Below are positions 3,087 to 20,496 of a stretch of 64,000 nt of DNA, piece after piece (position 1 is the stretch's first letter; each line of letters begins with the position of its first letter). The stretch is from Oscillatoriaceae cyanobacterium Prado104 (GTDB lineage Bacteria; Cyanobacteriota; Cyanobacteriia; Cyanobacteriales; Microcoleaceae). Where the stretch lies: positions 25,334 through 89,333 of the forward strand of contig JALOON010000042.1 of the NCBI GenBank assembly GCA_025454405.1, written 5' to 3'. The notes below the pieces were generated by a model. That model made no database searches and was not told the DNA's origin. It saw only the letters and a list, made by a program, of their open reading frames with translations. A program made the position numbers and the translations under genes.

Positions 3087-3354
3087 CTAAAATTTCGTTA
3101 ATCTTTCTCCATACCTTGCTGTTTTCATTCCGGCAATCCTCACCGACTGACGGAGTTATCTGTTAAAAGTTGCAGTTTTGAGAAGGAAGAGTTGACAGTT
3201 GACAGTTGACAGTTGTCACGATCGAAACAGGAAGAATCAAGCATCCTGAGACAATATACATCTAGTTTTTGCGAAGCGACCGACCCAGCCGCTCCCAGAG
3301 AACGTTAAGTTATTGCTTTACCCCTAACCATGCTACGCCTGCAAGCGATCGAAA

Positions 3355-5973
3355 TCAATTCAGGTAAGCTACAGTAACGCCGGCACCGCCTTCTTTTTGA
3401 CTCGCGATTTCGTAGCGGGCTACCTGCGGGTGCGATGCTAGAAATTCGTGAATGCCGCGCCGTAACTGTCCCGTGCCTTTGCCGTGAATTATCCACAGCG
3501 AGCCGTATTCTACTGCTTTTGCCAAAGCTCTGTCTACTTCGATTTCAGCGTCTGCAACTCTCGCACCCCGCAGGTCGATCGTGTTTTTGTCCGTCCGCAG
3601 CGCGATCGGGGCTGGGGATTTTTCTGGCTCCGATTGGGCAGGTTTAGCCTTGACATTTGCAGCCGATTGTGCTAATGCTTTGGCTTTTTCGGCTTTGGTT
3701 TCGGGTTTTTGGCCGTCGAGGGATTCGATTTCTGCAAGTTTGACGGTCATTTTCATGATGCCGAACCGCACGGTCAACTCTTCGTTAGCATCCGGCCCGC
3801 TGAGGATTTCGGCCGTTTGGCCCAAGCTGGGAATGCGGATGCGATCGCCCGTTTTCGGCATGAAACCGGGTTTGGGTTTGGCAGGCTGTTTCCGCGAGGG
3901 CAGGTGTTTTTCGGCAATTTGATTCAAAGTTTCCGTGGCCTGTTGGGCATTTTGCGCCGTTTGGTTGCCCGACTGCAAGCGCCGGATGATTTGAGCAATT
4001 TCGGCTTTTGCCGAGCCGATCGCCTCTTGTACTGCCACTTCTTGCGCTAATTTGAGTTCTCGCTCCCTCTCTTGCAGCGCCGCTGCTTTTTGCGACACTT
4101 CTCTGTGAAGTTGTTCGGTTTGTTGCAGCAGTTGCGTTGCTTCTTTCGCCTTGGTTTCCTGTTTGCGCCGCTGGGCTTCGAGTCCGGCAATGACTCGATC
4201 GACATCTTGCGACGCCCCGCCCACATAGGTTTTCGCTGTGGCGACAATTTCTGACACCAAGCCGAGCCGTTTGGCAATTGTCAGGGCGTTGGAACGTCCG
4301 GGAATCCCCCACAGCAGGCGGTAGGTGGGCTGCATCGAACTGTCGTCAAATTCTACTGAGGCGTTTTCAAAGCGCGCATCTTGATATTTCAGGGCTTTGA
4401 GTTCGCCGAAGTGGGTAGTTGCGACTGTCAGCAAAGAATGGCTGGCGAGGTACTGCAACAGGGCGATCGCCAGGGCGCTGCCCTCTGAGGGGTCTGTCCC
4501 CGCTCCTACTTCGTCCAGCAGCACTAGGGATTTGGGCGGAGCGAGTAGCGGAGGGATGGGGTACGGGGCATGGGGCAGGGGTTGTGCGTTTCCCTCTACT
4601 TCTTTTTCCTGGTGCAATACTTCTAAAATGCGGCTGATGCGTTTGATGTGGCCGGAGAAAGTAGACAAACTTTGCTGCAAAGATTGTTCGTCACCGATAT
4701 CAGCAAGGATGTTATCAAACCAGGGTAATTCAACTGGTTCGCGGGCGGCGACAAACATTCCTGCTTTTGCCATCAAAGCAGCCAATCCCAAAGTTTTTAG
4801 AGTAACAGTTTTGCCTCCGGTGTTGGGGCCGGTGATGGCGACAACGCGGATTTGCGGCTGAATTGTCAGGTCGATCGGGACTACAGAAAATCCCTGTTCG
4901 TACTGCTGCTGCCAGACTAACAGCGGGTGCCGCAACTGCCGCAAAGTTACGGGCGATCGCAGGTTGGGAATTTCTGCTAATTTTTCGGTTTCCGAGCTTT
5001 CCTCGCTAGCATTTTCCTCAGTTTCTGCTGCGGGATTTATTGCCTCTTCTTGTCTATCTTCCAATTCGATAAATGTAGGAGGATTTGCTTGGAGCCAAAA
5101 GCCGTAGCGGGCTTTAGCAGTGGCTAAATCTAAAATTGTTACTACCGCCAACAATCTTTCTAAATCTTCTTTTACTTGCGATACTTGTTCTGTGAGGGCG
5201 CGGCGCACGGCTTCTTCTTCAGCTTGTTCTTGCCTCAGCAACTGCCGCATTTGGTTGTTGAGATTTACTGTATTGTTTGGTTCGATATAAAGCGTAGCAC
5301 CGCTGACGGAGGAATCGTGAACGATGCCCGGTACAGCATCTTTTTGTGGCGCTTTGACGGGAATCACAAAGCGCGAATTTCTTTGCGTAATTACCTGTTC
5401 TTGTACGGCGTTGGATTGCCTTTGCAAAATGCCCTGCAAAATCTGATAAATGCGATCGCGCAACTGCCGGATTTGCGTTCTAATGCCGCCTAATTTGGGA
5501 GTAGCGCGATCGGTCACTTGACCGCGTTCGTCGATGCAGCGGTGTATTTCTTGTTCTAATTCCGGATAAGTTCGCAATTGAGCGGCAAGATTTGCTAGTA
5601 CCGGCAAATCCGATCGACTGTCGATGGTGCGGCGCAACTGCCGAGCTCCGGCGAGGGTAGTAGCAATTGCCAGCAGTTCGTCGCCCCCGAGGATGCCTTG
5701 GAGTTCGGCCCGTTTCAGGAAACTGCCGATATCTTGAATGCCTTCAAAAGTCAAACCGCCGTTAGGGCTGTTTTCTAACTGATAAGCTTCCTTAGTTTGA
5801 GCTAAAAGTTCTGCTGTCTGAGAACGAGTTGTGGGGATTTCGAGGCTAGTGGCTGCTGCGACGCCGAGTTTGGTGGCCGCGAAGGTAGCCAAGTGCTGGC
5901 ACAGGCGCGGCCATTCCAATAGTTCTAGTGTTTCTGCTTGAATCAAAGTTGAGGGGGTGTTGGTAATTGGCAT
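3355..5973 (-). CDS. mutS2: Endonuclease MutS2 (MutS domains III-V plus C-terminal Smr domain)
   Basis: An 872-aa ORF with a Walker A motif (ITGPNTGGKTVTLKT), the MutS ATPase region, and a C-terminal Smr domain (LRGARVADAEIEVDRALAKA...IIHGKGTGQLRRGIHEFL). Confidence 0.9.
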   Translation of the reverse strand: MPITNTPSTLIQAETLELLEWPRLCQHLATFAATKLGVAAATSLEIPTTRSQTAELLAQTKEAYQLENSPNGGLTFEGIQDIGSFLKRAELQGILGGDELLAIATTLAGARQLRRTIDSRSDLPVLANLAAQLRTYPELEQEIHRCIDERGQVTDRATPKLGGIRTQIRQLRDRIYQILQGILQRQSNAVQEQVITQRNSRFVIPVKAPQKDAVPGIVHDSSVSGATLYIEPNNTVNLNNQMRQLLRQEQAEEEAVRRALTEQVSQVKEDLERLLAVVTILDLATAKARYGFWLQANPPTFIELEDRQEEAINPAAETEENASEESSETEKLAEIPNLRSPVTLRQLRHPLLVWQQQYEQGFSVVPIDLTIQPQIRVVAITGPNTGGKTVTLKTLGLAALMAKAGMFVAAREPVELPWFDNILADIGDEQSLQQSLSTFSGHIKRISRILEVLHQEKEVEGNAQPLPHAPYPIPPLLAPPKSLVLLDEVGAGTDPSEGSALAIALLQYLASHSLLTVATTHFGELKALKYQDARFENASVEFDDSSMQPTYRLLWGIPGRSNALTIAKRLGLVSEIVATAKTYVGGASQDVDRVIAGLEAQRRKQETKAKEATQLLQQTEQLHREVSQKAAALQERERELKLAQEVAVQEAIGSAKAEIAQIIRRLQSGNQTAQNAQQATETLNQIAEKHLPSRKQPAKPKPGFMPKTGDRIRIPSLGQTAEILSGPDANEELTVRFGIMKMTVKLAEIESLDGQKPETKAEKAKALAQSAANVKAKPAQSEPEKSPAPIALRTDKNTIDLRGARVADAEIEVDRALAKAVEYGSLWIIHGKGTGQLRRGIHEFLASHPQVARYEIASQKEGGAGVTVAYLN

Positions 5974-6305
5974 TCCCAGGCGCTGACCGAGAAGGGTAAC
6001 AGAGGTACTATTAAATAATTTTAAAGTTTTTTCGGGTTTGCGGGCGCGATTTGAGAAATTATCGATCGCGGGCGGGACTTTCGGGAGAAGATACTTATGC
6101 GACTGGGATTTGCTAGATAAAAGTTACAAATGCCGTTTGAATTTCATTTTTCCAGAAGTAGTTTAAAATTTAAGTTTAAGTCAAGATACTTCGACCTTGA
6201 AAGGAGGTTGTGCTGACTGTTTTTAGCTGGAAATTTAACTATTTTAATTGGGAATATATTGGCAATTCTGGCGGTTAGATCGCGAACGTTAATTTTTGGA
6301 GTGTA

Positions 6306-7556
6306 TTGGGTATGGCTGAGATTCTGACGATTGCGGATGTTTCAGTGTTTGAAAGAGTGCGGGAGTTGCTGGAGGGAGAGGGACACAGCTTGAAAGTCGC
6401 TGCCGACAGCAAAGAGGGTTTGGATTTGGCCGGGCAAGTGCCGCCAGATTTGATAATTTGCGACGGCACTTTGCCTCAAGTTGGTTGGTTGGAACTGTGC
6501 CACTCGGTAAAGGTCGATCGAGCTTTGGCTGGAGTGTATTTTATCCTGTTGGCGGCACCCGAACAGTTGGGCGGGGTGGCTCAATTGGACGAATTGGTTG
6601 ACGATTTTGTACTCAAACCTATAGTCAAGCAAGATTTGTTGGGGCGGGTGCGTGCGGGTTTGCGCGCCTGCGGGTTGAGGGCTCAATTGGAGCGATCGCA
6701 GCAGGAGTCGCTGCTGTTTCGCGCTCAAATCGTGGCAACGGAAAAAATGTCTTCTTTGGGGCAGTTGGTTGCTGGTATCGCTCACGAAATCAACAATCCG
6801 ATTACTTTTATTTACAGCAACCTGACTCACGTACAAAGTTACGCAGCCGATTTAATCGCTCTGCTGAAAATGTATCAAAAAGAGTTGGTCGAACCCAGTC
6901 GAGAAATCTTGCAAAAACAGCAAGATATGGATGTAGAGTTCGTGGTTGACGACCTGTTGAAAATTGTAAATTCAATGCGAAATGGGAGCGATCGCATCCG
7001 GCAAATTATCTTGTCCGTACAGGACTTTTCCCGCACGGATCGATCGGGGTGGCAGCTATTTGATGTATCTGACGGCTTAGAAAATACGCTGTTACTGTTG
7101 CAGCACCGCTTGCCCGCCCAGGATGGCAGGCGGGATATTAAGGTAGTGAAGGAATACGGAAATTTGCCGCAGGTGGAGTGTTATGCTGGTCAGCTAAATC
7201 AAGCATTTTTGAGTATTATCAACAATGCGATCGATGCTTTGGATCTGGTGGCTAGAGAGTCGGAAATTTCAGATAACAAACAATTTAAACCCGTGATTTC
7301 GATCCGTACTAAAGTTGTCGATGGCGGGCGGATTGCGATCGAGATTGCTGACAACGGTATGGGAATGAGTGAAGTTATTAAAGCGCGAATTTTCGACCCA
7401 TTTTTCACCACTAAACCTGCTGGAGAGGGTAGCGGATTGGGACTTGCTGTCAGCTACGATATAGTAGTGCAGCAGCACAAAGGGGAATTGCTGTGTTTTT
7501 CCGAACCGGGAAAAGGCACGGAATTTCGCATAGAAATCCCGCTGCGACACAGTTAA
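6306..7556 (+). CDS. Hybrid response-regulator receiver / sensor histidine kinase (HisKA + HATPase_c)
   Basis: N-terminal receiver-like domain (DLIICDG...KP), HisKA H-box (AHEINNPITF), and N/G1/G2 boxes (IADNGMGMS...GEGSGLGLAVS). It is a paralogue of the 28676..30109 protein. Confidence 0.8.
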   Translation: MGMAEILTIADVSVFERVRELLEGEGHSLKVAADSKEGLDLAGQVPPDLIICDGTLPQVGWLELCHSVKVDRALAGVYFILLAAPEQLGGVAQLDELVDDFVLKPIVKQDLLGRVRAGLRACGLRAQLERSQQESLLFRAQIVATEKMSSLGQLVAGIAHEINNPITFIYSNLTHVQSYAADLIALLKMYQKELVEPSREILQKQQDMDVEFVVDDLLKIVNSMRNGSDRIRQIILSVQDFSRTDRSGWQLFDVSDGLENTLLLLQHRLPAQDGRRDIKVVKEYGNLPQVECYAGQLNQAFLSIINNAIDALDLVARESEISDNKQFKPVISIRTKVVDGGRIAIEIADNGMGMSEVIKARIFDPFFTTKPAGEGSGLGLAVSYDIVVQQHKGELLCFSEPGKGTEFRIEIPLRHS

Positions 7557-7560
7557 GATG

Positions 7561-7592
7561 ATTTGAGATTTGAGATTTGAGATTTGAGATCG
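7561..7592. repeat. GATTTGA heptamer tandem repeat
   Basis: gatttgagatttgagatttgagatttgagat; the same family is at 11585-11680. Confidence 0.8.
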
Positions 7593-7871
7593 GACAATCT
7601 CAAATTTCAAACTGTTAACTGTGGTAACAAGTTAAGCCTGCATGGCAGTTGTCAAGGGGATGCGATATCGTGTCCGGTCGATCGATCGCGATCTGGTTAG
7701 TTCGTAGTGCGGACTTCAGTCCGCAAAATGCTGCGGACTGAGGTCCTTACTACAAACCTCTTTTATTACTGGTAATCGACCGGACATGATGTGAGAAGAT
7801 GTCTCAAAGAACAAGCGGTCAGAACCTCGCTGTCGATCGTCTAAAGGTGGAACAATTAACTTAACATTGGG

Positions 7872-10031
7872 TTAGCGATTGTCAAAGGGCAAACCATCAA
7901 ACAGCAAATCAATATCAGTTTCATCGACAGTCTCAGAGTTCGCTACTGGCGGCTTGGTTGAATGCACATTTGCTAGGGGTAACTTAGGCGCGGGTTCCGC
8001 AGCAGCAGGTTCCGATTTCTCCAACTTAACTACTGGCAATTCGCTACCGTTTGTGCCATTTTTGTTAGTTTGATTCCACACCATCATGCCCAGCAAACCG
8101 TCAATCAAACCGCCACCGCTACCGCTGCCGCTAACCGAAACATCAGGCACGACTCGCACCTTGCGATCGCCGATAATTTGCATTAGTTGCAATGCCGTAT
8201 AACCGGAACCTCCCAAAGCTACCACACCCGCCCGATAAGCTTCTGCTTGAGCGTTTCCTTTGACCCGAATCGACTCAGCTTCGCCCTGGGCTTGTTTGAT
8301 TTGCGAATTCGCTTTTAACTCGGAAATTTTCACGCCTTGTTCCGATTTGACCATCTCTTGTTGGATCTCGGCCAAAGCAGTTTCTCTGACCAATTGTTGG
8401 CGCTGAGTTTGTGCTAGTTGCTGCACTTCATAAGTCTTGCGCTGTTCCTCAGCAATCTTGCGATCGGTCTGAGTTTGCATCAACTCTGCAGGTGGCAAAA
8501 TATCGCCGATTAAAGTGTCAATTGCTTGCACGTCATAGGTGCGCAAAGCTGCTTTGATATACTCTGCTGCTTCCGCTTGCCGATCGCTCCGGGCTGAGAG
8601 AAAATCCAATACAGAATAAGCTTGGGCAGAATTGCGGAAATAATTGCCAATTGTCGGCTGCAAAACGTGGTCAACTAAGTTCTGCATCGAACCCACGCGC
8701 GAGATAACTTTCGGGGCATCCAAAGCGCCGACATGGATGATTTGAGCTACTTCTAAATCGAAGGCAAAACCATCTTGCGATCGCACGGTTAAAGATGAGA
8801 GTTTCGAGTCGTAACTGTGCCGTTCCGTCTTGCCAGACCAATTCAAAACAATATTAGTAGTCGGCACTAATTCCACCTTCAAAATGCGCGTATTTAGCGG
8901 ATGTTTGCCCGGATAAAGCGGAGTTATCCACACCCCTTTATTCCCAACATTTACTAAATTGCCGTGGGTAAAAGCAGCGCCGCTGACATCTTCCGAGGTT
9001 TTGCCCACATAGGAAATTACCGCGCCGACATAGCCGATCGGGATTTCGGTCATCGGCACTTGTTCTACTCCAACAAACCAAGGATTCAAGTTCCACGAAC
9101 CGGAAAGCAAAACTTGTTCTTGCAAGCCGCGCCGCCCGCCGCCGCTGATAAATTTCTGCGCGTTTTGGAAGTTGTCGTGATTCGGAATAATCGGTCCGGC
9201 GATTTCGCCATCTTGAATCGGAACGCCGTCATAAGTTGTCACGATTCCCACTTTGTCGGGAGCTATTTTGCACAGTTTCAACTGTTCCGGTGTCATCCCG
9301 TGTTTGGGAGCATTTGCCGCTGTAATTACGGTAAATAATGCCGTGTTAATTCGATAGCTGCCTGCCGTTAAAATACCGAGTTGCCTGCCTTTTTCGCCAC
9401 CGCTTTTGAGGAACTTGCGAGCATCTTGAAAATTGTCGCATTCTGTGATTTTGCCGAGGATGCGCTGCGGCGGAATCGACGCGCCACCCGCTGCGATAAT
9501 TAAAGCTATTTCGCCTTGAGGAACTACGGTTAGAGATTCTTTGCGAACGCTGTACTGTATTGGCCAATAACCCCAGTGCCAACCGGGGGGTAATGTATCG
9601 GCTTGATAGCCAGCTTCTGAGTTTAAAGCAATTAAATCTCCGGCGGGTAAAGACTTGCCGCCGAGGCTAAACTTTTTACTGACAATGCCAACTTCGCGAT
9701 CGCCAATTACTACCAATCCGCCAAAAAATAATGGAATGCCAATTACCACCACACCGCCGATGACAATAGGTAGAATACTGCTGAATAAATCCATTTGAAC
9801 TGTCTGTACCGCAACAGTATTTTGAGGTAGCTGGTTCAGGATTAATTTCGGGGATTTTGCTGCTAGCTGAGTCGTGGTTTGAACTGGGGGAGGGATATCG
9901 CCAGCAGCCAATACCGGCGAGGGTTTCAAACTGGCTGTGGCGCTGATGGCTAAAGAGGCCGAAATAGCGGCTGCAAAATGTTTTAAAATACGGGCTTTGA
10001 CTTGAGATTTGGGCAAAAGTGAATAAAGCAT
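7872..10031 (-). CDS. Flotillin/SPFH (band-7, YqiK-like) family membrane protein, unusually long
   Basis: A 719-aa ORF with a TM helix (ILPIVIGGVVVIGIPLFFGGLVVIG), an SPFH domain, and a flotillin-type Ala/Glu/Gln-rich coiled coil (QAQGEAESIRVKGNAQAEAYRAG). An alternative internal start is at MDLFSS (9794). The sequence contains an internal duplicated motif DNFQ(D/N)A(R/Q)KF..GG. Confidence 0.75.
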   Translation of the reverse strand: MLYSLLPKSQVKARILKHFAAAISASLAISATASLKPSPVLAAGDIPPPVQTTTQLAAKSPKLILNQLPQNTVAVQTVQMDLFSSILPIVIGGVVVIGIPLFFGGLVVIGDREVGIVSKKFSLGGKSLPAGDLIALNSEAGYQADTLPPGWHWGYWPIQYSVRKESLTVVPQGEIALIIAAGGASIPPQRILGKITECDNFQDARKFLKSGGEKGRQLGILTAGSYRINTALFTVITAANAPKHGMTPEQLKLCKIAPDKVGIVTTYDGVPIQDGEIAGPIIPNHDNFQNAQKFISGGGRRGLQEQVLLSGSWNLNPWFVGVEQVPMTEIPIGYVGAVISYVGKTSEDVSGAAFTHGNLVNVGNKGVWITPLYPGKHPLNTRILKVELVPTTNIVLNWSGKTERHSYDSKLSSLTVRSQDGFAFDLEVAQIIHVGALDAPKVISRVGSMQNLVDHVLQPTIGNYFRNSAQAYSVLDFLSARSDRQAEAAEYIKAALRTYDVQAIDTLIGDILPPAELMQTQTDRKIAEEQRKTYEVQQLAQTQRQQLVRETALAEIQQEMVKSEQGVKISELKANSQIKQAQGEAESIRVKGNAQAEAYRAGVVALGGSGYTALQLMQIIGDRKVRVVPDVSVSGSGSGGGLIDGLLGMMVWNQTNKNGTNGSELPVVKLEKSEPAAAEPAPKLPLANVHSTKPPVANSETVDETDIDLLFDGLPFDNR

Positions 10032-10171
10032 TTTTTTTCATACACGCTGTACAGTTTATTACATCCAGCTTAGCCTTAATTCCCAAGTGCCTACATAAAA
10101 CTTATAGAATTTATGCGCTTCTATGTGTGGTGCGCCGCAAGCACCTTACCGCTATCAGTAGCGTATAGATT

Positions 10172-11452
10172 TTAACTTTGAGAAGCCAAGACAGGTTTTC
10201 CAGTCAATACAACCTGTTCGATAATATCAGCAGCTTTTTTCACACCGCCCGATCGCGCGATCGCCCCTTGCATCTCTATTGCCTTTTTTTTATAAGAATC
10301 TTGTGCCAGCACTTTCTCAACGCTCGATCGCAGTTTAGCAACGCTCAGTTGCTTCAAAGAAATCAGTTCGCCAACACCTGTATAAGCAATTCGTGCCGCC
10401 ACTCCTGGCTGGTCATTCGCCATAGGAATCGCTACCATCGGTACTCCATTTCTCAAAGATTCTAAAGTCGTATTCATCCCCGCATGAGTAATCGTAATAG
10501 TTGCTTTTTGCAACAGTTCTAATTGCGGTGCCAAGCCAACAACGATCGGATTTCCCGCTAATTTTGGCAAAGATTCTGGACTAGCACCACCGCCGAGATC
10601 GATGACTAATTGAGCGTCTAACCCTTCACAGGCAGAGGCAATTATTTGAAAAACATTTACCAAGCGATTTTGAATAGTTCCCATCGAGGCATAAATCAAT
10701 GGTTGACCAGTTAATTGTTCAAAAGGGAAAGGTACTGCTTGGCGCAGTGCAGGATTGTGATAATGACCGGTGAAATGAAAATGCGGCGGTAAACTTTGCC
10801 TGGGAAAATTAAATTCAGGCGGTTGCTGGCTGATTTGAGCGAGTTTAGAGTAATAATCGTTCGGGTAAGAATAGAGGGGCAAGTTCCACTCTTTGCGATA
10901 TTGGGCGATTGTCTTGCGAATCGGTTTGGCAAGCACTTCTACTAACTGAAAGCCGAGTCGATTGCGCCAGCGCCCTTGCCAAGTTGGAGTGTATTGCCAA
11001 GTAGTGAAAATAGGAGGAATGTTGGGTTCTCGATTCAGCATCAACCCACTACATATAGTTACAAAAGGAATGTTAAGAATGTCCGCAACCGTTCCTCCTT
11101 CCAATGAATATTGGTCTACAAGTAAAGCTGCTACACCTGCCTTTCTAATAGTGGTTGGTGCCTCTCTGAGCATCACAGCCGAAGTTTTTGGCACATTTTT
11201 AAGATTGTATTGCAGCGCCTTGAGTCCGCTGAGTTTCCCCATTTCGGTTAAGATTTTTGTACTGGCACCGAGGGGAAATTCATCTTCAGCTAATGCCTGA
11301 AATTCTAAACCGCTGGCTAGAGTTTTTGCTTTGGCATCAAGAAAGTTAAATACCGTAACTCGATGACCTCGGTGTAGGAGTTCGCTGCCCAAAGTTGTCA
11401 TGGTGTTGAGGTGGCCGATGGATGCCGGACAGAGAATGCCGAAGTGGGTCAT
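10172..11452 (-). CDS. GT1-family UDP-glycosyltransferase (MGT/CrtX zeaxanthin glucosyltransferase-like), copy 1
   Basis: A 426-aa ORF. The N-terminus MTHFGILCPASIGHLN...LHRGHRVTVF mirrors CrtX (MSHFAVIAPPFFSHV...ARGHRVTF). The C-terminal GT1 signature is THAGMNTTLESLRNGVPMVAIPMANDQ. Confidence 0.8.
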   Translation of the reverse strand: MTHFGILCPASIGHLNTMTTLGSELLHRGHRVTVFNFLDAKAKTLASGLEFQALAEDEFPLGASTKILTEMGKLSGLKALQYNLKNVPKTSAVMLREAPTTIRKAGVAALLVDQYSLEGGTVADILNIPFVTICSGLMLNREPNIPPIFTTWQYTPTWQGRWRNRLGFQLVEVLAKPIRKTIAQYRKEWNLPLYSYPNDYYSKLAQISQQPPEFNFPRQSLPPHFHFTGHYHNPALRQAVPFPFEQLTGQPLIYASMGTIQNRLVNVFQIIASACEGLDAQLVIDLGGGASPESLPKLAGNPIVVGLAPQLELLQKATITITHAGMNTTLESLRNGVPMVAIPMANDQPGVAARIAYTGVGELISLKQLSVAKLRSSVEKVLAQDSYKKKAIEMQGAIARSGGVKKAADIIEQVVLTGKPVLASQS

Positions 11453-11469
11453 TAGTAAAGGCTCCTTTC

Positions 11470-11680
11470 AGTTAATTTTTTTGTAATATTATACCGATCG
11501 CAAATGATTTGTAAATATCTTGCTCTCTCCCCTTAATAAGGGGAGGGTTGGGGTGGGGTAAAAAATTTACAAATGATTTATGACTGCTATATACCGATTT
11601 GAGATTGGAAATTTGAGATTTGAGATTGAACTTCACAGCTTAGGTTATCGATTTGAGATTTGAGATTTAAGTTCCCAGCT
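11470..11680. repeat. Intergenic composite repeats: palindromic CCCCTTAATAAGGGG-GGGTTGGGGTGGGGT element plus GATTTGA heptamers
   Basis: The same ~60-nt element (tccccttaataaggggagggttggggtggggt) recurs at 42155-42200. Heptamer tandems occur at 11585-11680. Confidence 0.7.
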
Positions 11681-12960
11681 TAGATTTGAGCAGCCAAGAC
11701 AGGTTTTCCAGTCAAGATAACCTGTTCGATAATATCAGCAGCTTTCTTAACTGTGCCCGATCGCCCGATCGCCTTTTGCATCTCGATCGCCCTTTTTTTA
11801 TAATTCTCTTGTACCAGCACTTTCTCAACGGTCGATCGAACTTTATTCACGCTCAATTCCTTCAAAGCAACCACTTCACCAACACCTGTATAAGCAATCC
11901 GCGCCGCAATTCCCGGCTGGTCGTTCGCAATAGGAATTGCCACCATCGGTACTCCATTGCTCAACGATTCCAAAGTCGTATTCATCCCCGCGTGAGTAAT
12001 CGTGAGAGTGGCTTTTTGCAGCAGTTCCAATTGCGGTGCAAAACTAACAACTATCGGATTTCCCGGCAATGGCGGCAAAGATTCGGGACTCGCGCCTCCT
12101 CCCAGAGAAATTACCAATTGAGCATCTAAGTTTTCGCAAGCAGCAGCGAGGATTTGAAAAACATCCAACAAGCGATTTTGCACGGTTCCCATCGAAGCAT
12201 AAATCAACGGTTTGTCGGTTAATTGTTCAAAAGGAAAAGCAACTGGTTGTCGCGTTGCTGGGTTGTGAAACGGGCCGGTGAAATGAAAGTTTGGCGGTAA
12301 ATATTGCCTGGGAAAGTCGAATTCTGCCGGTTGTTGAGCGATCTGAGCGAGTTGAGAGTAATAATTTTCCGGGTCGGAGTACAAAGGTAATTTCCACTCT
12401 TTGCGATACTGGGCGATCGCATTTTGAATCGGCTTTGTCGCCAGTTCGATTAATCGATCTCCGAATTGATTGCGCCAGCGTGCTTGCCAAGTTGGACTGT
12501 ATTGCCAAGGAGTGCAAATCGGAGGAATGTTAGGTTCTCGATTCAGCATCAATGCACTGCAAACTGTGATAAAAGGAAGGTTTAGAAATTCTGCGATCGT
12601 TCCTCCTTCTATGGAAACTTGGTCTACCAGCAAAGCTTCTACACCGACTTTTTTAATAATAGCTGGAGCTTGTGAGAGAATCAGAGTTGAAACTTGCGCG
12701 ATTAAGTCGATCGTATATCGAAAAGCTGCCAATCCGCTAAGTTTTCCGAGTTTGCTCAAACTTTCTTGATTCCATCCCAAGGGAAACTCATTTTCAGCTA
12801 ATAGCTGGAATTCCAAGCCGCTTGCTAAGGTGGTGGATTCAGCATCGGGAAAACCAAATAAGGTGACTTGATGGCCTCGATGCAGCAATTCGCTACCTAA
12901 TGTTGTCATGGGGTTGAGGTGGCCGTTGGCTGTCGGACAGAGGATGCCGAAGTGAGTCAT
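11680..12960 (-). CDS. GT1-family UDP-glycosyltransferase (MGT/CrtX-like), copy 2 (tandem paralogue)
   Basis: A 426-aa ORF, collinear with and about 70% identical by eye to the 10172..11452 product over its full length. Confidence 0.8.
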   Translation of the reverse strand: MTHFGILCPTANGHLNPMTTLGSELLHRGHQVTLFGFPDAESTTLASGLEFQLLAENEFPLGWNQESLSKLGKLSGLAAFRYTIDLIAQVSTLILSQAPAIIKKVGVEALLVDQVSIEGGTIAEFLNLPFITVCSALMLNREPNIPPICTPWQYSPTWQARWRNQFGDRLIELATKPIQNAIAQYRKEWKLPLYSDPENYYSQLAQIAQQPAEFDFPRQYLPPNFHFTGPFHNPATRQPVAFPFEQLTDKPLIYASMGTVQNRLLDVFQILAAACENLDAQLVISLGGGASPESLPPLPGNPIVVSFAPQLELLQKATLTITHAGMNTTLESLSNGVPMVAIPIANDQPGIAARIAYTGVGEVVALKELSVNKVRSTVEKVLVQENYKKRAIEMQKAIGRSGTVKKAADIIEQVILTGKPVLAAQI

Positions 12961-13374
12961 TTGAAAAGGCTCCGCATGAGTTTAAATTTGTTTTAGCATT
13001 TAATTGGCTCAGGAGCGGTTTTTTTTGCCGATCGCGAATCTCTCACCAAAATTCGATCTTACAGCAGATTGCGCGCGAGTTCGGTACATTTTTGACCCCC
13101 CCCAACCCCCCCTTATTAAGGGGGGGAGTGTACTTCATAAACCTGCAATCTGTTGTAAGTAAGGTGCGCAGTGCGCACCCCAAGCCTGCAAACTTTTTCA
13201 AATGCGAACTTTAGCTTGAGGTTCGATCGTCTCCGCTTCGATACCGCCCGTAAATCCTCTCTAATTTTTCTTTACTTTAGTTCATAATAATCATAATTAA
13301 TGTTTGTAACAAATCCAGCACGGCTCGCTCTGGCTCAACTATAATGTTAGCAATTAATATTTATAGTAAAAAAT

Positions 13375-14547
13375 ATGCAAGAGCGAGTTTTAAAAGAACG
13401 TTATGCCATCCAGAAAAGCTTGGGTAAAAATGCAGGTCGGCAAACTTTCCTAGCGCGAGACTTAGAAACTCAGCAATTAGTCGTCGTCAAAATCCTCACC
13501 TTTAGTGCAGATTTCCAATGGGACGATTTAAAACTATTTAAACGAGAAGCTGCAACCTTACAGTCACTTTCGCATCCGGGAATTCCCCGTTATTTAGATT
13601 GCTTTGAATTCGAGACACCAAAAACTAAAGGGTTGGCACTGGTACAAAGCTACATCGAAGCGAAATCCTTGGCGGAATGGGTGGAATCGGGACGGAGTTT
13701 TAACGAAGCCGAAATTAAGCAAATCGCTAAAAGCTTGCTGGAAATTTTGGTGTATTTGCAACAACAAAATCCGCCAGTAATTCATCGAGATCTTAAGCCG
13801 AGCAATATTTTATTAGCAGATAGATCGCCCGTCAAACAACACTCAGCGGTTCATAAAGGCAGTTTGTTGGGCGAAGTTTATTTAGTAGATTTTGGTTCGG
13901 TGCAAACCCTAGCAGCGAGAGAAGGTAGCACGGTTACTGTAGTGGGAACTTACGGATATATGCCGCCCGAACAATTTGGCGGGCGTGCGGTTCCGGCTTC
14001 GGATTTGTACGGTTTGGGTGCGACGTTAATTTACTTAGTAACGGGAGTCCATCCAGCCGATTTGCCGCAGGAGGATTTGCGGATTAATTTTGAGCCAAAA
14101 ATCCAGCTTAGTGCTGATTTTGTTGATTGGTTGCAGTGGATGACAGAACCGGATTTAAAAAGCCGCTTAACTGCGGCCGATCGAGCATTAAAAGCACTGG
14201 AAAAACCGGGAGAGGGGGGGCGTTCGGTCTTGGGAAAACCTGCTAAAAGCTGGGTAAAACTCAAGAAAACCCGGAATAGTTTGGAGATTGTGATACCTCC
14301 TTATCAACTATGTTCGGTTTTTATGTGTTATTTTTTGTTTTTTATTTCATTGCTAATTTTGTTTGTTTTATGGATAATATTTATTTTTAATGCGTGGTAT
14401 CTCTTTTTTTCGCGATATGAATTATTATTCTGGGCGATCGCGGTTATTTTAGGTGTGATTTCTGCGATATTTTTTATTGAATCGACTCTCAAAAAGTCTG
14501 CAAAATTCATCCGACTGCGGAACGTTATGCGATCGAGAAACAGCTAA
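13375..14547 (+). CDS. Membrane-anchored Ser/Thr protein kinase (Hanks-type), copy 1
   Basis: Kinase subdomains are visible: VVVKIL (subdomain II), HRDLKPSNILL (VIb), DFG (VII), and GTYGYMPPE (VIII). The hydrophobic, Phe/Ile-rich C-terminal TM region is encoded by an AT-rich tract (14300-14500). Confidence 0.85.
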   Translation: MQERVLKERYAIQKSLGKNAGRQTFLARDLETQQLVVVKILTFSADFQWDDLKLFKREAATLQSLSHPGIPRYLDCFEFETPKTKGLALVQSYIEAKSLAEWVESGRSFNEAEIKQIAKSLLEILVYLQQQNPPVIHRDLKPSNILLADRSPVKQHSAVHKGSLLGEVYLVDFGSVQTLAAREGSTVTVVGTYGYMPPEQFGGRAVPASDLYGLGATLIYLVTGVHPADLPQEDLRINFEPKIQLSADFVDWLQWMTEPDLKSRLTAADRALKALEKPGEGGRSVLGKPAKSWVKLKKTRNSLEIVIPPYQLCSVFMCYFLFFISLLILFVLWIIFIFNAWYLFFSRYELLFWAIAVILGVISAIFFIESTLKKSAKFIRLRNVMRSRNS

Positions 14548-14570
14548 GTCAAAATGCGGGAAGGCGCACT

Positions 14571-15872
14571 TTGTTAGCGCGGGACTTGCAAACCCAAGAG
14601 TTAGTAGCGATTAAGTTACTAATTTTTGGGGAGGATGTTTGCTGGGATGACTTAAAGCTATTTGAAAGAGAAGCGCAAACTTTACAACAGCTTTCCCATC
14701 CGGCAATTCCCCGCTACCTGGATTACTTTGAAGTGGATGTGCCAACGGGTAAAGGATTTGCCTTGGTACAAAGCTATATCCAGGCTAAATCCTTAGAAGA
14801 ATGGTTAAAAAGCGGGCGAACATTTAGCGAAGCAGAAGTCAAGCAACTGGCTAAAGCATTACTAGAAATTTTGGACTATCTCCACGGGCAACAGCCGCCA
14901 GTTATTCACCGAGATATCAAGCCGAGTAATATTTTACTGGCAAACAGATCGGGCAATAGTGTCGGTGATGTTTATTTAGTTGATTTTGGTTCCGTACAGA
15001 CACTAGCAGCTAGAAAAGGCAGCACGATTACTGTTGTCGGTACTTACGGATATATGCCGCCCGAACAATTTGGCGGGCGAAATGTTCCCGCTTCCGATAT
15101 TTACAGTTTGGGTGCGACGTTAATTTATTTAGTAACGGGCAGGCATCCAGCCGAGTTATCCCAAGGTAATTTGCAAATTCAATTTGAGTCAACAGTCAAT
15201 CTCAATCCAGATTTAATTGCTTGGCTGAAGTGGATGACACAACCGAGTTTGAACCGCCGCCTTGCATCTGCAAAAGAGGCTATGGAAGCTTTGGAAAATC
15301 CCCGCCTGCCAACAGATATCTCGACGGTCAGACAAAAACCTTTTGGGAGTAAGATTGAAATGAAAAAAGATGGGGAGAATTTAGAGGTTGTAATTCCGCC
15401 CAAAAAGTTGACTTTTCGGAAATTCTACTGGATATTTGTAGGAACGTTTTTTTGCTTTGCGCAATTTTTATTTCCTTTTATCTGGATAAAACCCGTTCTT
15501 AAAGGTGCATTTTTCTTCATTATTCCATTTCTGGTGTTTTTACCACTTTGTTGGATCTTTGGCTTAGTCATTGGTTCTGTATTGTGGGAAAATCTCGTAA
15601 CTTTTTTCAGAGAAACTAGAATTAAGTTCGACGGTCAACAGATTTCTGTAACTCACCTGTGGCCTTGGTATCAATATCAGGTGGCTCCGATCGAGAAAAA
15701 ATCTATGATGCAAGGGAGTATGTATATTCGAGATTCCATGTTAGGTTACGTGTTTGATGAAAAATATTATGAGACTCTGAGAATTTCTCAAGCAACCCCT
15801 CCAGAAATAGAATGGTTGACCGAGGAAATAAGTGCTAGATCTAACGGAAAAATTACTGTGGCTTTTGCATAA
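14571..15872 (+). CDS. Membrane-anchored Ser/Thr protein kinase, copy 2 (tandem paralogue; 5' end uncertain)
   Basis: The ORF table begins at TTG 14571, but protein homology to copy 1 (ERYAIEKQLSQNAGRRTLLARDL) is encoded in the same frame from ~14517. No ATG/GTG/TTG start lies upstream after the in-frame TGA at 14478. This kinase retains an additional C-terminal soluble region that copy 1 lacks. Confidence 0.75.
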   Translation: MLARDLQTQELVAIKLLIFGEDVCWDDLKLFEREAQTLQQLSHPAIPRYLDYFEVDVPTGKGFALVQSYIQAKSLEEWLKSGRTFSEAEVKQLAKALLEILDYLHGQQPPVIHRDIKPSNILLANRSGNSVGDVYLVDFGSVQTLAARKGSTITVVGTYGYMPPEQFGGRNVPASDIYSLGATLIYLVTGRHPAELSQGNLQIQFESTVNLNPDLIAWLKWMTQPSLNRRLASAKEAMEALENPRLPTDISTVRQKPFGSKIEMKKDGENLEVVIPPKKLTFRKFYWIFVGTFFCFAQFLFPFIWIKPVLKGAFFFIIPFLVFLPLCWIFGLVIGSVLWENLVTFFRETRIKFDGQQISVTHLWPWYQYQVAPIEKKSMMQGSMYIRDSMLGYVFDEKYYETLRISQATPPEIEWLTEEISARSNGKITVAFA

Positions 15873-15939
15873 AAGCGGCGAATAGGTCGGTAAACAGCAA
15901 AATTACTTAACCCAAATAAGTCGATCGCCCTGCATTTTT

Positions 15940-16060
15940 GCTAATCGCATACTGCGATCTGCTTGCTATTTTCTGTAATTGCGATCTGCCAACCATCAGC
16001 TTGTTTTAGATAATTACTCAAAAGAGGTTTTGGAGGATGACATCTTTGGCACTCATCTGT
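15940..16060 (-). pseudogene. Remnant of a second Phd/YefM-family antitoxin gene (truncated, no start)
   Basis: The reverse strand translates ...PLLSNYLKQADGWQIAITENSKQIAVCD*, matching PLRNYLQQAEGEPIVITENGKPVAVM of the intact antitoxin at 17150..17431. The nucleotides also match (ttttctgtaatt...cagcttgtt..agataatt). Confidence 0.4.
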
Positions 16061-16315
16061 GTATTCCTAGTGATTTATACCATTTTCATAAAGTAGCGCT
16101 ATATATCTACTGCCCAACCCTTTGAGTAATAGGTAGCTGCCCAATTTATCTGCAGCATGACTTTATGAATTTGGTATTACTGGTGAGTGAACCTGCGGGC
16201 TTTGAAACTTTTATTTTAATTTTCACTCGGTTAGTCTCAGTCTTTCCTAACAATAGCATTTTTCGATTATCATTACTCTTAAAGTTGCCACCCGTGCATC
16301 AATATAGGAGTCCCG

Positions 16316-16624
16316 ATGATTGCGCCCCGCACGCCCACTAAACAACACTGGGAGCTGTTTGAGATTTATAAGGCTAAACAAATGGAACCCGAAGAGTTCC
16401 TGAGATATTGGGCTGTCAACTACGAAGAACTGGCCGAATTGTGCGGGCGCTCTAAAAGCACGGTAGCTCATTGGTTTTCCCAAGGCGAACACCGCCGGGA
16501 ACCCTCAGAAGCAGATAAGCGCAGGCTGGCCGAAATTCATGCCCTATGGACTCAATTTGAGAACGAACCCGCTCACCTGAGAGAAATCTGGGCCCGAAAG
16601 CGCCAGCGCCAGCGTCGCGATTAG
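16316..16624 (+). CDS. Small helix-turn-helix protein (hypothetical)
   Basis: A 102-aa ORF with an HTH-like segment YEELAELCGRSKSTVAHWFS and a basic C-terminal tail (RKRQRQRRD). Confidence 0.45.
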   Translation: MIAPRTPTKQHWELFEIYKAKQMEPEEFLRYWAVNYEELAELCGRSKSTVAHWFSQGEHRREPSEADKRRLAEIHALWTQFENEPAHLREIWARKRQRQRRD

Positions 16625-16817
16625 TTGTCATCGGTGCATTATTTAGTTGCCGCTGTGACAACAGCGGTTTATGGTGTTTTACATGAGACTCAGGCAAAAC
16701 ACCCCGGTTTATCGAACTTTCGTGGCTGCTGGCTCGCAAAATTGATGCAGAAACGGGATTTGTCAGCTTTAATGCGCAAGTTCTGTTACAAATCATCGCA
16801 TTCAAAATAGGTGAAAT

Positions 16818-17081
16818 ATGATGCTCGTCGAAAACTTCTTGTCTATTTCTAATACTGATTTACCAAATACACCAATCGATCGGGATTCTGTTGAAAAGCA
16901 ACCAGAAAACTGAGAACAGCTCAAACATTTGCTAATTGGTTCTCCCAAAACTGTTACAAGTACGATTCAAGCATTGCACAGTCTGGGATATGCGGCAGCC
17001 GGAGATTGGAGTCCTTTACAGCCAACAGGAAAACCACCTGAAGTAATGAGTGTCTTAATCCGACGCTTTGTGGTGAAATAG
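16818..17081 (+). pseudogene. 88-codon ORF interrupted by an in-frame TGA (codon 32); possible decayed gene
   Basis: MMLVENFLSISNTDLPNTPIDRDSVEKQPEN-TGA(16911)-EQLKHLLIGSPKTVTSTIQALHSLGYAAAGDWSPLQPTGKPPEVMSVLIRRFVVK*, all in one frame. Confidence 0.25.
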
Positions 17082-17149
17082 TCAAATCGCGATCGCTCTT
17101 TTTCCGACAGTCAAATTCAAGAGTACAGTCAAATTTAAGAGCGATCGCC

Positions 17150-17431
17150 CTACTTTTGTGATTCTTGAGAGTAAGAATCATCAACTAATTTCCAGAAATC
17201 CGCATGATTAATTCCTCCAGTTTCTGCAATCTGCCGATCTGCTTCCTCAATTAATTTCATAAATTTCGGATTGCGTGCTAACAGAAAACGTTCCAGTTCA
17301 TCGGGGTCTACAATTAATGTCATTACTGCAACTGGCTTCCCATTTTCTGTAATGACAATGGGCTCACCCTCAGCTTGTTGGAGATAATTTCTCAAAGGTA
17401 CATCGATCTGGGCGATCGGGATAATTTTCAT
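17150..17431 (-). CDS. Type II toxin-antitoxin Phd/YefM-family antitoxin (no recognisable cognate toxin downstream)
   Basis: A 93-aa ORF, MKIIPIAQIDVPLRNYLQQAEGEPIVITENGKPVAVM..., with the Phd/YefM fold signature. The downstream 76-aa ORF 16954..17184 has no RelE/ParE/YoeB motifs. Confidence 0.65.
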   Translation of the reverse strand: MKIIPIAQIDVPLRNYLQQAEGEPIVITENGKPVAVMTLIVDPDELERFLLARNPKFMKLIEEADRQIAETGGINHADFWKLVDDSYSQESQK

Positions 17432-17517
17432 AAATTAAATTCCTCTGTGCCTGTAAATAACTTATACTAAATGATGTCAAACGCAGTCATAGATTACTGT
17501 TTAATCATTAGACTTAG

Positions 17518-17643
17518 ATCCCCCCTAGCCCCCCTTAAGAAGGGGGGGACCGGAATCCTATCGAAGTCCCCCTTAAGAAGGGGGGGACTGGAAACAGTTC
17601 AAAGTCCCCCTTTTTAAGGGGGATTTAGGGGGATCTAGACTAA
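17518..17643. repeat. Dispersed palindromic C5/G5 hairpin repeat family (CCCCCTTAAGAAGGGGGGG / AAGTCCCCCTTTTTAAGGGGGATTTAGGGGGATC)
   Basis: Related copies occur at 37355-37590, 52262-52310, 57697-57855 and 61038-61150, in both orientations. Confidence 0.8.
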
Positions 17644-17674
17644 GGGAAAATTGTTTGTCCTCTAGCAGATAACT

Positions 17675-19955
17675 CTAAACAAACTGACCCGTTCCATTCG
17701 ATCGCACTCGCCGAATTCCAATCACCGCAGGCATCGGCGAACGCCGCCTGTCATTCTCAGTATTGCTAGGCCACAAACTGCCGCGAGAAACAGTCCGAGT
17801 TTGATTGAAAACAGCACCGTTTAAATCCAACATTTCAATCGATCGGCGCAACACAGTACCGTCATCTATCGGGCAATCTTCTCCCGGATGTTGCACCGCA
17901 AGCAACATAGTATCTCCCACAAAAGTCGGCCCCGTCATTTCGCACCGATTCGGCCCGTAAGAAAATGGAACTACGGTTCCCGCATTCGGGCCGGAAGTCG
18001 GAATGTAAAACAGCCAATTGTTGCCGAAAACACCCGTAAAATCCGAGACATTTCCAGTTTTTGAATGGTCGATCGTATTTTGTTTCCCAGCAGCGCCAAC
18101 ATCAAAACCGTTGTGCGTGCTCGTAGACATATCCGTGACGCCCCAAACATTACCTTGAGAATCAAAAGCCAAATTGTCTACATTAGCAAATCCCGCCCCA
18201 TCTCGGGTTCCGGCTTCTCCACCTTGCGCCAAACGCTGCCACCGGAAAGTCAAACCCGCACCGTCGGGACTATCTTCAATGATTTTGTAAAGTCCTCCCG
18301 ACTGCTGGCCGCTGTTAACAGCAGCAGTGTATTTAGCAACATTAAAAATCCGAGAATCTGGATAACCGTCGCTTCCCGGCGCGCCGTCGGTATAGGCAAT
18401 GAAAACTTCATTAGTGCGAGGATGAACTTCCAAATCTTCCGGCCGCGCCGTCGGAGTACCGCCAACTAAATTAGCAGCTAAGAAAGCATCAACTAAAACC
18501 GCACCTTGGCTGGTGTAAAAATTAGCTAAAGTTTTATTTCTGTAGCCGGGAAGTGCAGTTGCTTCGTTAGCTGTATCCATCACAAAAGAACCGCCGTCTT
18601 GAGTTTGACCGGCAATTCCCGCCCGTCTGGGCAAACGAGTAGCTGCATCTCTTTGCGCCTTGCCAAAACTTGCCAATTCTGCTTCGCCAACTCTCGTCGG
18701 ACGCACCGGATTTGTCGGGGTATTTAATAGCAGCGGAATCCACCTGCCCGTACCGTTGCGGTTGTATTGGGCGACGTACAAAACGCCGTCTTCAAACAAG
18801 CGGCTGTTGCTTTTATCTGCAGGATTTGTAACAGTACCGTTGCTGACAAATTTCCAAGTATGTCCGCCGCGCCGATCGTCCCCCATGTATACTACTAATT
18901 TGCGTCCTGATTCAGCGCGAAAAGCGACGTTTTCATGGCGGAAACGGCCCAACCAACTGTGTTTCCGGGCGCGGAAATTCAGATCTTGCGGATCGACTTC
19001 TACCATCCAACCGTATTTTTCGCCTACTAAGCCGAATTCCTCACCGGTAGTGCCCTTGGCGTATTCGGTTTGGCCGCCGTTGGGTTTGACGCTTTCCTGG
19101 ACTCCGACAAAGAATACTTCGCTACCTTGGAAATTTTCTTCAGCAGTGAGGATTGTCCCCCAAGGAGTGGTGCCGCCGGAACAGTTGTAAGCCGTACCGA
19201 TGATGCGGGTTGTCGCCTTGTCTGGTTCCCCAGGAGGTGACATCCTTGTATTTGTCGGTACGTTCTCTGTTGATTCCCAAGCCAGAAAGTCCGTGAATGC
19301 GGCGGTTGAGGGGATCGCGGGGGATGGGTACAAATCGACCGTTGGCTTGTTTGGTGATGCGGACGATCGAACCCCCCAGATTGTACAAAAATTCGCCCAG
19401 GGTGGCGCGATTTTTTACCGATAAGTCTATGCCAAGGACGGCGCGATCGGCTGCGGGAAAGGGTGCCAAGTCTGACGGAGTTTCCGGCGCTACTTTCGAC
19501 AAGGGGAAGGATACGTACTCGTGGTTGACCCACAGATAGCCGTCGTCGTTGCTGCCGCGAACGCCTACAAAACCGGTGTAGTCGCTGTTGTAACCGAAAT
19601 AGTCAGCCGGATCGGGAAATACTCGATCGCCCCAGCGGACAATCAAATACCGTTCGTATTCCGGAGGTACAACTACATCGTCAATCACGTTGTAACTGGT
19701 TAATTTAGTATCCTGCGAGGCAGCCATTACAGTGCCCTGCCCGTTCAAACCCGTCGGCATGAAACTCGATTGTTGCCTGTAAATTGGCAGCGGGTGAGGC
19801 AGTCTTAAAGGAGTAAAAGAAGTTGGAGTTACTTGAGCTTCGGCTGCGCTAGAATTGACGCCGAATAAAGTTTGAGTTAGCGTGGGAGCAAGCGCAGTAG
19901 TAGCCGCACTGCCACCGAAAAAAATTAGCAGTTGTCGGCGAGTTATTTTAGACAT
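17675..19955 (-). CDS. phoX: Alkaline phosphatase PhoX (DUF839, Tat-secreted), interrupted by a +1/-1 frameshift near 19225-19245
   Basis: The N-terminal part (ORF 19140..19955) has a Tat signal (RRQLLIFFGGSAATTA) and PhoX-like sequence up to ...TDKYKDV. The C-terminal part (ORF 17675..19333) begins homology at SPPGEPDKATTRIIGTAYNCSGGTTPWGT, the PhoX NCAGGxTPWGT motif. The two frames switch inside gatgtcacctcctgggg, within a CCCC/GGGG run. Confidence 0.8.
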
Positions 19956-19979
19956 AAATTCCTTATCAATCCAACGTCC

Positions 19980-20185
19980 TTAGTTAAGTTAGGCGAGTCT
20001 TAATAGAACTTTACTCCTTGGAAATTAAGGACAGTTAAGCTTTTGGTTAATTAAAATACGGTAGAATTTTAGTTAAAAATACGTTAAGTTTGCAGTTAAT
20101 TAGTTGCCAGTATCTTCGCAGGGTGCGCACTGCGCACCTTACGTTTTAAATTAAGGAGAGTTAAGCTTTTGGTTAATTAAATTGT
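19980..20185. promoter_or_regulatory. Putative Pho-box clusters (TTAA-core octamers at ~11-bp phasing) upstream of phoX; includes a 34-nt direct repeat (20021-20054 and 20150-20183)
   Basis: Two triplets of PyTTAAPyPy(T/A)-like octamers: gTTAAaaa/gTTAAgtt/gTTAAtta at 20073/20084/20096, and aTTAAgga/gTTAAgct/gTTAAtta at 20025/20035/20047. These lie 70-230 bp upstream of the phoX start (19955). They resemble cyanobacterial SphR/PhoB Pho boxes, which are three 8-bp direct repeats spaced 3 bp apart. Confidence 0.45.
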
Positions 20186-20496
20186 TGGATTATCCAACAG
20201 CCCGACAGGGAATTAATTCCCTGTCTCATAGCGAAAGTCCTCTCAAAGAGGACTGCAATTAATCGCGATCGAATGTCAGATTCCCCTGTCGGTTTCAATT
20301 GACATCTTGCACGCAGGGTCAATATGGGGGTTATTGGTGGGGTCGGGCGGGTTTATTTAGTCTATTTGCTACGTTTTTAATCTTTGGCGAACCCGCCCCT
20401 ACAGGTTATCGATCTGGGTACAAGCTCTCAGTTATACCCAAATATCAACTGTCAACTCTCAACTGTCAAAGATCGACTATCAACTATCAACTTAAT

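Follow-up and report, generated by a model that had tools for sequence, protein, structure and literature searches.

A 335-bp deletion across a gene boundary very probably accounts for a truncated and a start-less Ser/Thr kinase gene in Oscillatoriaceae cyanobacterium Prado104

How, if at all, is a kinase gene translated when its conserved N-terminus has no start codon and is encoded ahead of the stop codon of its neighbor? The question is raised by a 64,000-nt stretch of the metagenome-assembled genome of Oscillatoriaceae cyanobacterium Prado104 (hereafter "the window"; the corresponding public JGI/ENA contig is L001), in which two paralogous Ser/Thr kinase genes, kinase 1 and kinase 2, lie in tandem on the plus strand. 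An earlier sequence-only reading proposed that kinase 2 is initiated at a non-canonical codon, is produced as a fusion by ribosomal frameshifting from kinase 1, or is an N-terminally truncated and possibly inactive duplicate, and it regarded the arrangement as the scar of a tandem duplication. Comparison with orthologous loci favors the truncated copy, with the addition that kinase 1 is damaged too: a recent 335-bp deletion across the gene boundary very probably truncated kinase 1 and removed the start of kinase 2, a case of ordinary gene inactivation rather than of an unusual mode of protein production.

DNA alignment with the relatives L002, L003, and L004 revealed a single clean gap in the window, located at the junction between the two genes. 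Exact end-matching against L002, the nearest relative, showed that positions 67-401 of L002 (335 bp) are absent from the window and that the two ends share only the dinucleotide GA; against seven further loci, the missing segment measured 312-337 bp. Relative to L002, kinase 1 has lost its last 85 codons and its stop (~90 codons relative to L003 and L006), and the same gap removed the intergenic spacer with its AAGAGGA ribosome-binding site and kinase 2 codons 1-7, including the ATG. Both genes share one frame in L002, and because 335 leaves a remainder of 2 when divided by 3, the deletion created no in-frame fusion and left kinase 2 in the -1 frame relative to kinase 1. As expected of a deletion-derived remnant, the orthologues are intact at the same locus, the lost segment is delimited, and the lesion is in the sequenced DNA. 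Kinase 1 codon 382 was joined to kinase 2 codon 8 via the 2 nt of microhomology, a pattern that points to illegitimate recombination or replication slippage as the probable mechanism. HIP1-like sequences flank both breakpoints (GATCGATCGC on the left in the orthologues and GCGATCGA on the right in the window); these repeats were set aside as the cause of the deletion, as the junction does not fall at them. Promoter and terminator scans detected sites no more frequently than in shuffled sequences.

The ancestral state is evident from the relatives compared (L002-L014, comprising Microcoleus and relatives), 12 of which (L003-L014) could be read whole. All 12 carry two complete genes (449-487 and 456-484 amino acids) separated by a spacer of 33-57 nt, in which the AAGAGGA site is followed by an ATG; in each, the N-terminus of kinase 1 is MVERVLKERYAIQ and that of kinase 2 is MASKILKERY. 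L002 itself carries kinase 2 and the 3' end of kinase 1. A PhoX gene lies downstream of the locus in L003 (an ENA contig), L004 and L005 (Microcoleus sp. MON1_C1), and L006 (Microcoleus sp. AT9_A5); in these four, the complete genes (471-475 and 456-473 amino acids) are ~33 nt apart. The sequence-only reading had held that a clean ATG at the equivalent place in orthologues would imply a local sequencing error in the window; the ATG is indeed there, but its absence from the window is due to a real deletion. The closest kinase 2 homologues (84-93% identity, 456-473 amino acids) begin with M-A-S/I-x-[IV]-L-[KQ]-E-R-Y, whereas those of kinase 1 (470-476 amino acids) cover 98% of the 390-residue protein and leave its last 8 residues unmatched. 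In a collection of 5.8 billion clusters, this 390-residue form occurs as a singleton. Across hundreds of homologues, the members of both orthologue groups have their full length, and complete orthologues of each copy exist in Microcoleus, Coleofasciculaceae, and other genomes. Both genes encode membrane-anchored Hanks-type Ser/Thr kinases, and their pairing at neighboring positions is old and conserved.

Two other loci also show irregular genes. In L085 (JGI Ga0456421_00956, 2637-11026), the gene calls split kinase 1 (341 + 138 amino acids), Band_7 (272 + 348 amino acids), and PhoX (443 + at least 337 amino acids), reflecting either a frameshift-prone assembly or a decaying genome. In L015 (Coleofasciculus sp. 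D1M07_1, 949-2154), the open reading frame (ORF) of the kinase 1 orthologue begins only at LFEREAE, with a TTG, and spans 401 amino acids; this may be a further lineage with a damaged N-terminus in the kinase pair.

In the window, residues 1-382 of kinase 1 are native and comprise the kinase domain, two beta strands, and a two-helix membrane hairpin (features are listed in Table 1). The Pfam Pkinase match covers residues 10-268, and the profile scores of kinase 1 (118.9 bits) and kinase 2 (127.1 bits) both exceed the curated cut-off of 31.7 bits. Both kinases contain the beta3 Lys motif (VVVKIL in kinase 1, VAIKLL in kinase 2), the HRDxKxxN motif (HRDLKPSN and HRDIKPSN, respectively), and DFG, and the N-lobe of kinase 1 is complete (beta1, Gly-rich loop, and beta2). 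R382 is then followed by NVMRSRNS and the stop, so that the last 2% of the 390-residue query has no match in any orthologue. The protein would thus end after 8 wrong-frame codons of kinase 2 DNA and would lack the greater part of the beta-rich C-terminal domain that follows the membrane hairpin. The sequence-only reading had placed this stop correctly and had noted the missing C-terminal region, which amounts to ~85-90 residues present in the orthologues: everything beyond the hairpin is lost, whereas the kinase domain, the two pre-membrane strands, and the hairpin are retained. It was also right about the AT-rich stretch encoding the membrane segment (GC content of 0.22-0.34 across 14300-14450), the kinase 2 counterpart of which is modelled as a helical hairpin (helices at 312-340 and 344-375).

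Table 1. Coordinates of the features of the kinase locus, numbered from the first letter of the window
Feature	Position	Strand	Remarks
Kinase 1, truncated gene	13375..14547	+	Frame 1; 390 amino acids; NCBI MCU0544203.1; TAA at 14545-14547
AT-rich stretch encoding the kinase 1 membrane helices (~residues 313-366)	14311..14472	+	Assigned from GC content and hydrophobic sequence
Open frame-3 stretch IDSQKVCKIHPTA, 13 codons	14481..14519	+	Kinase 1 DNA in the -1 frame; without kinase homology
Deletion junction	14520..14521	+	Last sure left base 14519; first sure right base 14522; GA is the 2-nt microhomology
Kinase 2 remnant, codon 8 (E) to stop	14520..15872	+	450 intact codons; without a start codon or ribosome-binding site of its own
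Foreign tail of kinase 1, residues 383-390 (NVMRSRNS) and TAA	14521..14547	+	Kinase 2 codons 8-16 in the wrong frame
Longest kinase 2 ORF with a canonical start	14571..15872	+	TTG; 433 amino acids; annotated as MCU0544204.1

The damage to kinase 2 lies at its other end. After a TGA at 14478-14480, frame 3 reads IDSQKVCKIHPTAERYAIEKQLSQNAGRRTLLARDLQTQE and is open from 14481. The kinase homology that had been proposed to follow this TGA is real, but it starts only further on, exactly at E-R-Y, the E being GAA 14520; the 13 preceding codons, which hold ATC 14481, ATT 14505, and C_AAA_AAG (14490-14496), match nothing. In a tblastn search of 79 related loci, matches to close relatives began at query residue 13-15 or later. 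Since ERYAIEKQLSQNAGRRTLLARDLQTQE, which follows IDSQKVCKIHPTA in frame 3, is identical to the closest orthologue (P0002), the kinase similarity is no chance resemblance, and the remnant as a whole shares 93-94% of its nucleotides and 92-93% of its amino acids with L002 and L006. The first ATG, GTG, or TTG in the frame is TTG 14571, as had been noted; the resulting product begins at residue 31, midway through beta2 (Pkinase profile position 16). It lacks beta1, the glycine-rich loop, and Y16, G27, R28, and T30, which belong, together with K45, H143, D145, K147, N150, D168, and G170, to the residues that are invariant in all 111 members of the family alignment. No canonical start codon of kinase 2 thus yields a complete N-lobe. 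In the AlphaFold model of kinase 2 (mean predicted local distance difference test score, 78.6), beta1 spans residues 16-25, beta2 residues 28-35, and the VAIK strand residues 41-49; beyond the kinase domain come two strands, the two-helix membrane hairpin (312-375), five strands, and a C-terminal helix. Because beta1 and the phosphate-binding loop are gone, the product of TTG 14571 is most likely inactive, judging from the alignment and the model. We infer that kinase 2 and the C-terminal domain of kinase 1 no longer function.

Some further features of the pair were observed. The two proteins share 54% identity (E = 3e-142) and their genes ~71% nucleotide identity; nevertheless, a 38-nt exact repeat encoding TYGYMPPEQFGG is common to both genes (13948-13985 and 15042-15079). 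The two genes of L012 have the same tract in common, and those of L003 and L004 share 32 nt of it; codon-level constraint or a short gene-conversion tract may be responsible. Residues 293-463 of kinase 2 (15357-15869) form a conserved C-terminal module with the helix motif PEIEWL..E(I/L)S, the equivalent of which has been lost from kinase 1. This module had no Pfam match, and searches of Pfam (at E values up to 10) and NCBIfam named nothing beyond the generic kinase domain.

Apart from the deletion, the remaining 382 and 450 codons contain no stop or frameshift. The ratio of synonymous to nonsynonymous changes on the window branch was 40:26 for kinase 1 and 26:16 for kinase 2, and that of the sister branch was no better; neither remnant showed signs of decay in the form of relaxed selection or additional lesions. 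This suggests that the deletion is young compared with the 6-11% nucleotide divergence that separates the window from its nearest relatives. The absence of such signs fits a recent event and is no proof of lost function.

Intact codons could also be expected if ribosomes terminating on kinase 1 reinitiated at TTG 14571 and the shortened kinase 2 remained partly functional, for instance serving as a pseudokinase partner or scaffold. This is the rival that survives best, although we consider it unlikely. The TTG sits 23 nt past the TAA of kinase 1 and 6 nt past GGGAAGG, its ORF was called by gene callers and by NCBI, and UUG initiates at 10-100% of the AUG level in E. coli reporters (bioRxiv 10.1101/063800). 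In addition, the remaining 433 codons are intact, and nonsynonymous change is not in excess. However, a recent deletion alone predicts intact codons, and the product would be devoid of beta1 and the glycine-rich loop as well as of four residues conserved throughout the 111 family members. The AAGG and the TTG are plain coding sequence (NAGRRTL) in all orthologues and were therefore not selected as a start site. The start-less kinase 2 would at best be weakly translated from TTG 14571, with the weak AAGG motif ahead of it.

The deletion itself might be questioned, since the truncated proteins are singletons from a metagenome-assembled genome and a 71-bp difference in phoX from the public contig indicates that not every base can be trusted. 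The junction would then be an assembly artefact or a minority allele in an organism with two intact genes, which we regard as very improbable. L001 has the identical junction, and pieces that match the window exactly occur in Logan assemblies of run SRR12684587. One of these, contig SRR12684587_4800632 (L090; 1116 nt), corresponds to window positions 13956-15071 without mismatch, spans the junction, and encodes the frameshifted tail of kinase 1. The 38-nt repeat is the only such repeat in the pair and causes Logan contigs, built at k=31, to break exactly at the repeat positions: one contig ends at 13977, the start of the next was predicted at 13956, and L090 bore this out. Between the two copies of the repeat, L090 is unbroken and shows no branch at the junction. 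Scans of a metagenome contig collection for the junction and for its left flank gave no hits, a null without weight, as the flank pattern of L002, itself a JGI contig, was missed as well. Two assemblers thus give the same join, and because its ends share only 2 nt, a mis-join by collapse of the k=31 graph is ruled out and the junction is present in the reads.

Certain points nevertheless weigh against the deletion as a fixed and inactivating event. The Logan and JGI/ENA assemblies are independent as assemblies, possibly from one read set, and are not independent samples; a coexisting undeleted allele could have been hidden by the bubble popping of the assemblers; and both remnants could still be useful, which would likewise explain why selection is not relaxed.

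Of the ways in which a nearly full-length kinase 2 could still be made, a non-canonical start at ATT 14505 (or at ATC 14481 or 14532) would add a new N-terminal peptide to the protein. An open frame 3 is available from 14481, all conserved residues from E14, R15, and Y16 onward would be kept if translation began at 14505 or 14481, and AUU and AUC can initiate in E. coli, albeit at ~1-2% of the AUG level even with a good ribosome-binding site (bioRxiv 10.1101/063800). The candidate codons, however, lie in DNA derived from kinase 1 and owe their position to the deletion only. Nothing equivalent exists in the orthologues, where an ATG after AAGAGGA is used, and no purine-rich ribosome-binding motif was found before 14481 or 14505, so neither codon has the conserved start and ribosome-binding site of an infC-type case. 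The site is also within the translated ORF of kinase 1, where elongating ribosomes would interfere. With an expected yield of a few percent at most, the chance that this proposal is correct is slight.

A -1 frameshift within 14481-14544, for instance at C_AAA_AAG or at A_AAA (14502-14505), would instead produce a kinase-membrane hairpin-kinase fusion of ~840 amino acids. The passage from frame 1 to frame 3 is indeed a -1 shift, the AAA-AAG lysine codons lie just past the frame-3 TGA, and the predicted topology would permit the fusion, as the two-helix hairpin brings the chain back to the same side of the membrane. Distant relatives of 765-1065 amino acids also hold two kinase domains per chain. 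Nevertheless, the heptamer is imperfect, with C instead of A at its first position, so that only the A-site tRNA can re-pair perfectly. The minimum free energy of the downstream RNA (-22.9 kcal/mol) did not differ from the shuffle mean (-23.0 kcal/mol; z = 0.03), which argues against a stimulatory structure, and no upstream stimulator resembling a Shine-Dalgarno (SD) sequence was found. CTCAAAAAG is plain Leu-Lys-Lys coding sequence that is also present in L002, where the genes do not overlap; no relative compared has the overlap, and an arrangement that is a singleton cannot have been shaped by selection. The five double kinases that were read are ordered kinase-kinase-membrane rather than kinase-membrane-kinase. 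We regard production by frameshifting as very improbable. There is likewise only a faint prospect that the 64-nt overlap, although accidental, still yields kinase 2 activity through slippage at AAA-AAG, reinitiation, or a non-AUG start; in the case of slippage, the new kinase-membrane hairpin-kinase fusion would be a snapshot of how a two-kinase protein originates from tandem genes.

That the junction is the scar of the duplication that founded the pair, with its breakpoint inside the 3' end of kinase 1, is next to impossible: the 3' part of one copy does adjoin the 5' part of the other, as at a duplication junction, but the low identity of the copies at both the protein and the nucleotide level and their full-length orthologues, paired in all 12 loci, indicate that the duplication is much older than this lineage and that both of its products were complete genes, so that the 335-bp deletion is secondary.

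The genes flanking the pair differ from those of the relatives. Between the Band_7 gene (7872-10031) and kinase 1, the minus strand encodes tandem UDP-glycosyltransferase paralogues of 426 amino acids each (PF00201; 10172-11452 and 11680-12960). In L003, the Band_7 gene directly adjoins kinase 1, and the glycosyltransferase pair would accordingly be an insertion or duplication in the window lineage. Downstream of kinase 2 (16316-17431), the window has a 102-amino-acid ORF and a PhdYeFM-type antitoxin gene, and L003 and L004 have a Uma2-family endonuclease gene at this position; this flank thus appears variable. Further downstream is phoX (minus strand, 17675-20026). When the window was compared with L001 over 7375-20476, the window lacked 71 bp at 19208|19209 that are present in L001 (11835-11905), and the other 13.1 kb were identical. 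As a result, phoX is one ORF of 783 amino acids in L001 and two pieces in the window, of 271 (19140-19955) and 552 amino acids (17675-19333). The 271-amino-acid product is absent from public records, the NCBI, ENA, and JGI copies of the public contig (JGI Ga0392395_0000180; 105,468 bp) agree in length, and the window is identical to no public copy.

The biological significance of these observations is small: one filamentous cyanobacterial lineage, known only as a metagenome-assembled genome, has recently damaged both kinases by one deletion. The event is mundane and of an already known kind, and a possible correction of the annotation is the sole novelty. MCU0544203.1 and MCU0544204.1 are annotated as ordinary kinases and would be better flagged as truncated or as pseudogenes. 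More generally, a start-less ORF that overlaps its neighbor can mimic recoding or non-canonical initiation, and comparison with orthologous loci settles such cases quickly.

Several known systems resemble parts of this locus. With dnaX-type -1 frameshifting (A_AAA_AAG), it shares AAA-AAG lysine codons in the 64-nt overlap, where a -1 shift would link the two frames; it differs in its imperfect heptamer, in having no structure, SD-like element, or conservation, and in that its overlap is due to the deletion only. Natural two-kinase proteins likewise combine two related kinase domains with a membrane segment and a C-terminal domain. A library-wide search identified P0216, P0224, P0236, P0242, and P0271 (765-1065 amino acids, 40-45% identity to the query), in each of which two kinase domains in one chain are followed by the membrane segment and the C-terminal part. 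The window encodes no in-frame fusion, and because their domain order differs, these double kinases are no precedent for a fusion in the window. Taken with the conserved pairing of the genes, the fusions in distant relatives suggest that the paired kinases may act together. A close parallel is spkA of Synechocystis sp. PCC 6803, which is split into sll1574 and sll1575 by a T insertion in glucose-tolerant strains (PMC3276265) and whose phenotype, by that paper's citation of Kamei et al. 2001, is motility. There, too, an indel specific to certain strains disrupts a cyanobacterial Hanks-type Ser/Thr kinase locus, which has been annotated as two ORFs; unlike the 1-bp insertion that splits one gene, the 335-bp deletion truncates one gene and beheads its neighbor. 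Pseudogenes formed by microhomology deletions are alike in their intact orthologues, delimited lost segment, 2-nt junction, and loss of start, ribosome-binding site, and frame. What sets the present locus apart from them is that one event strikes two adjacent paralogues and leaves two long ORFs that are annotated as normal.

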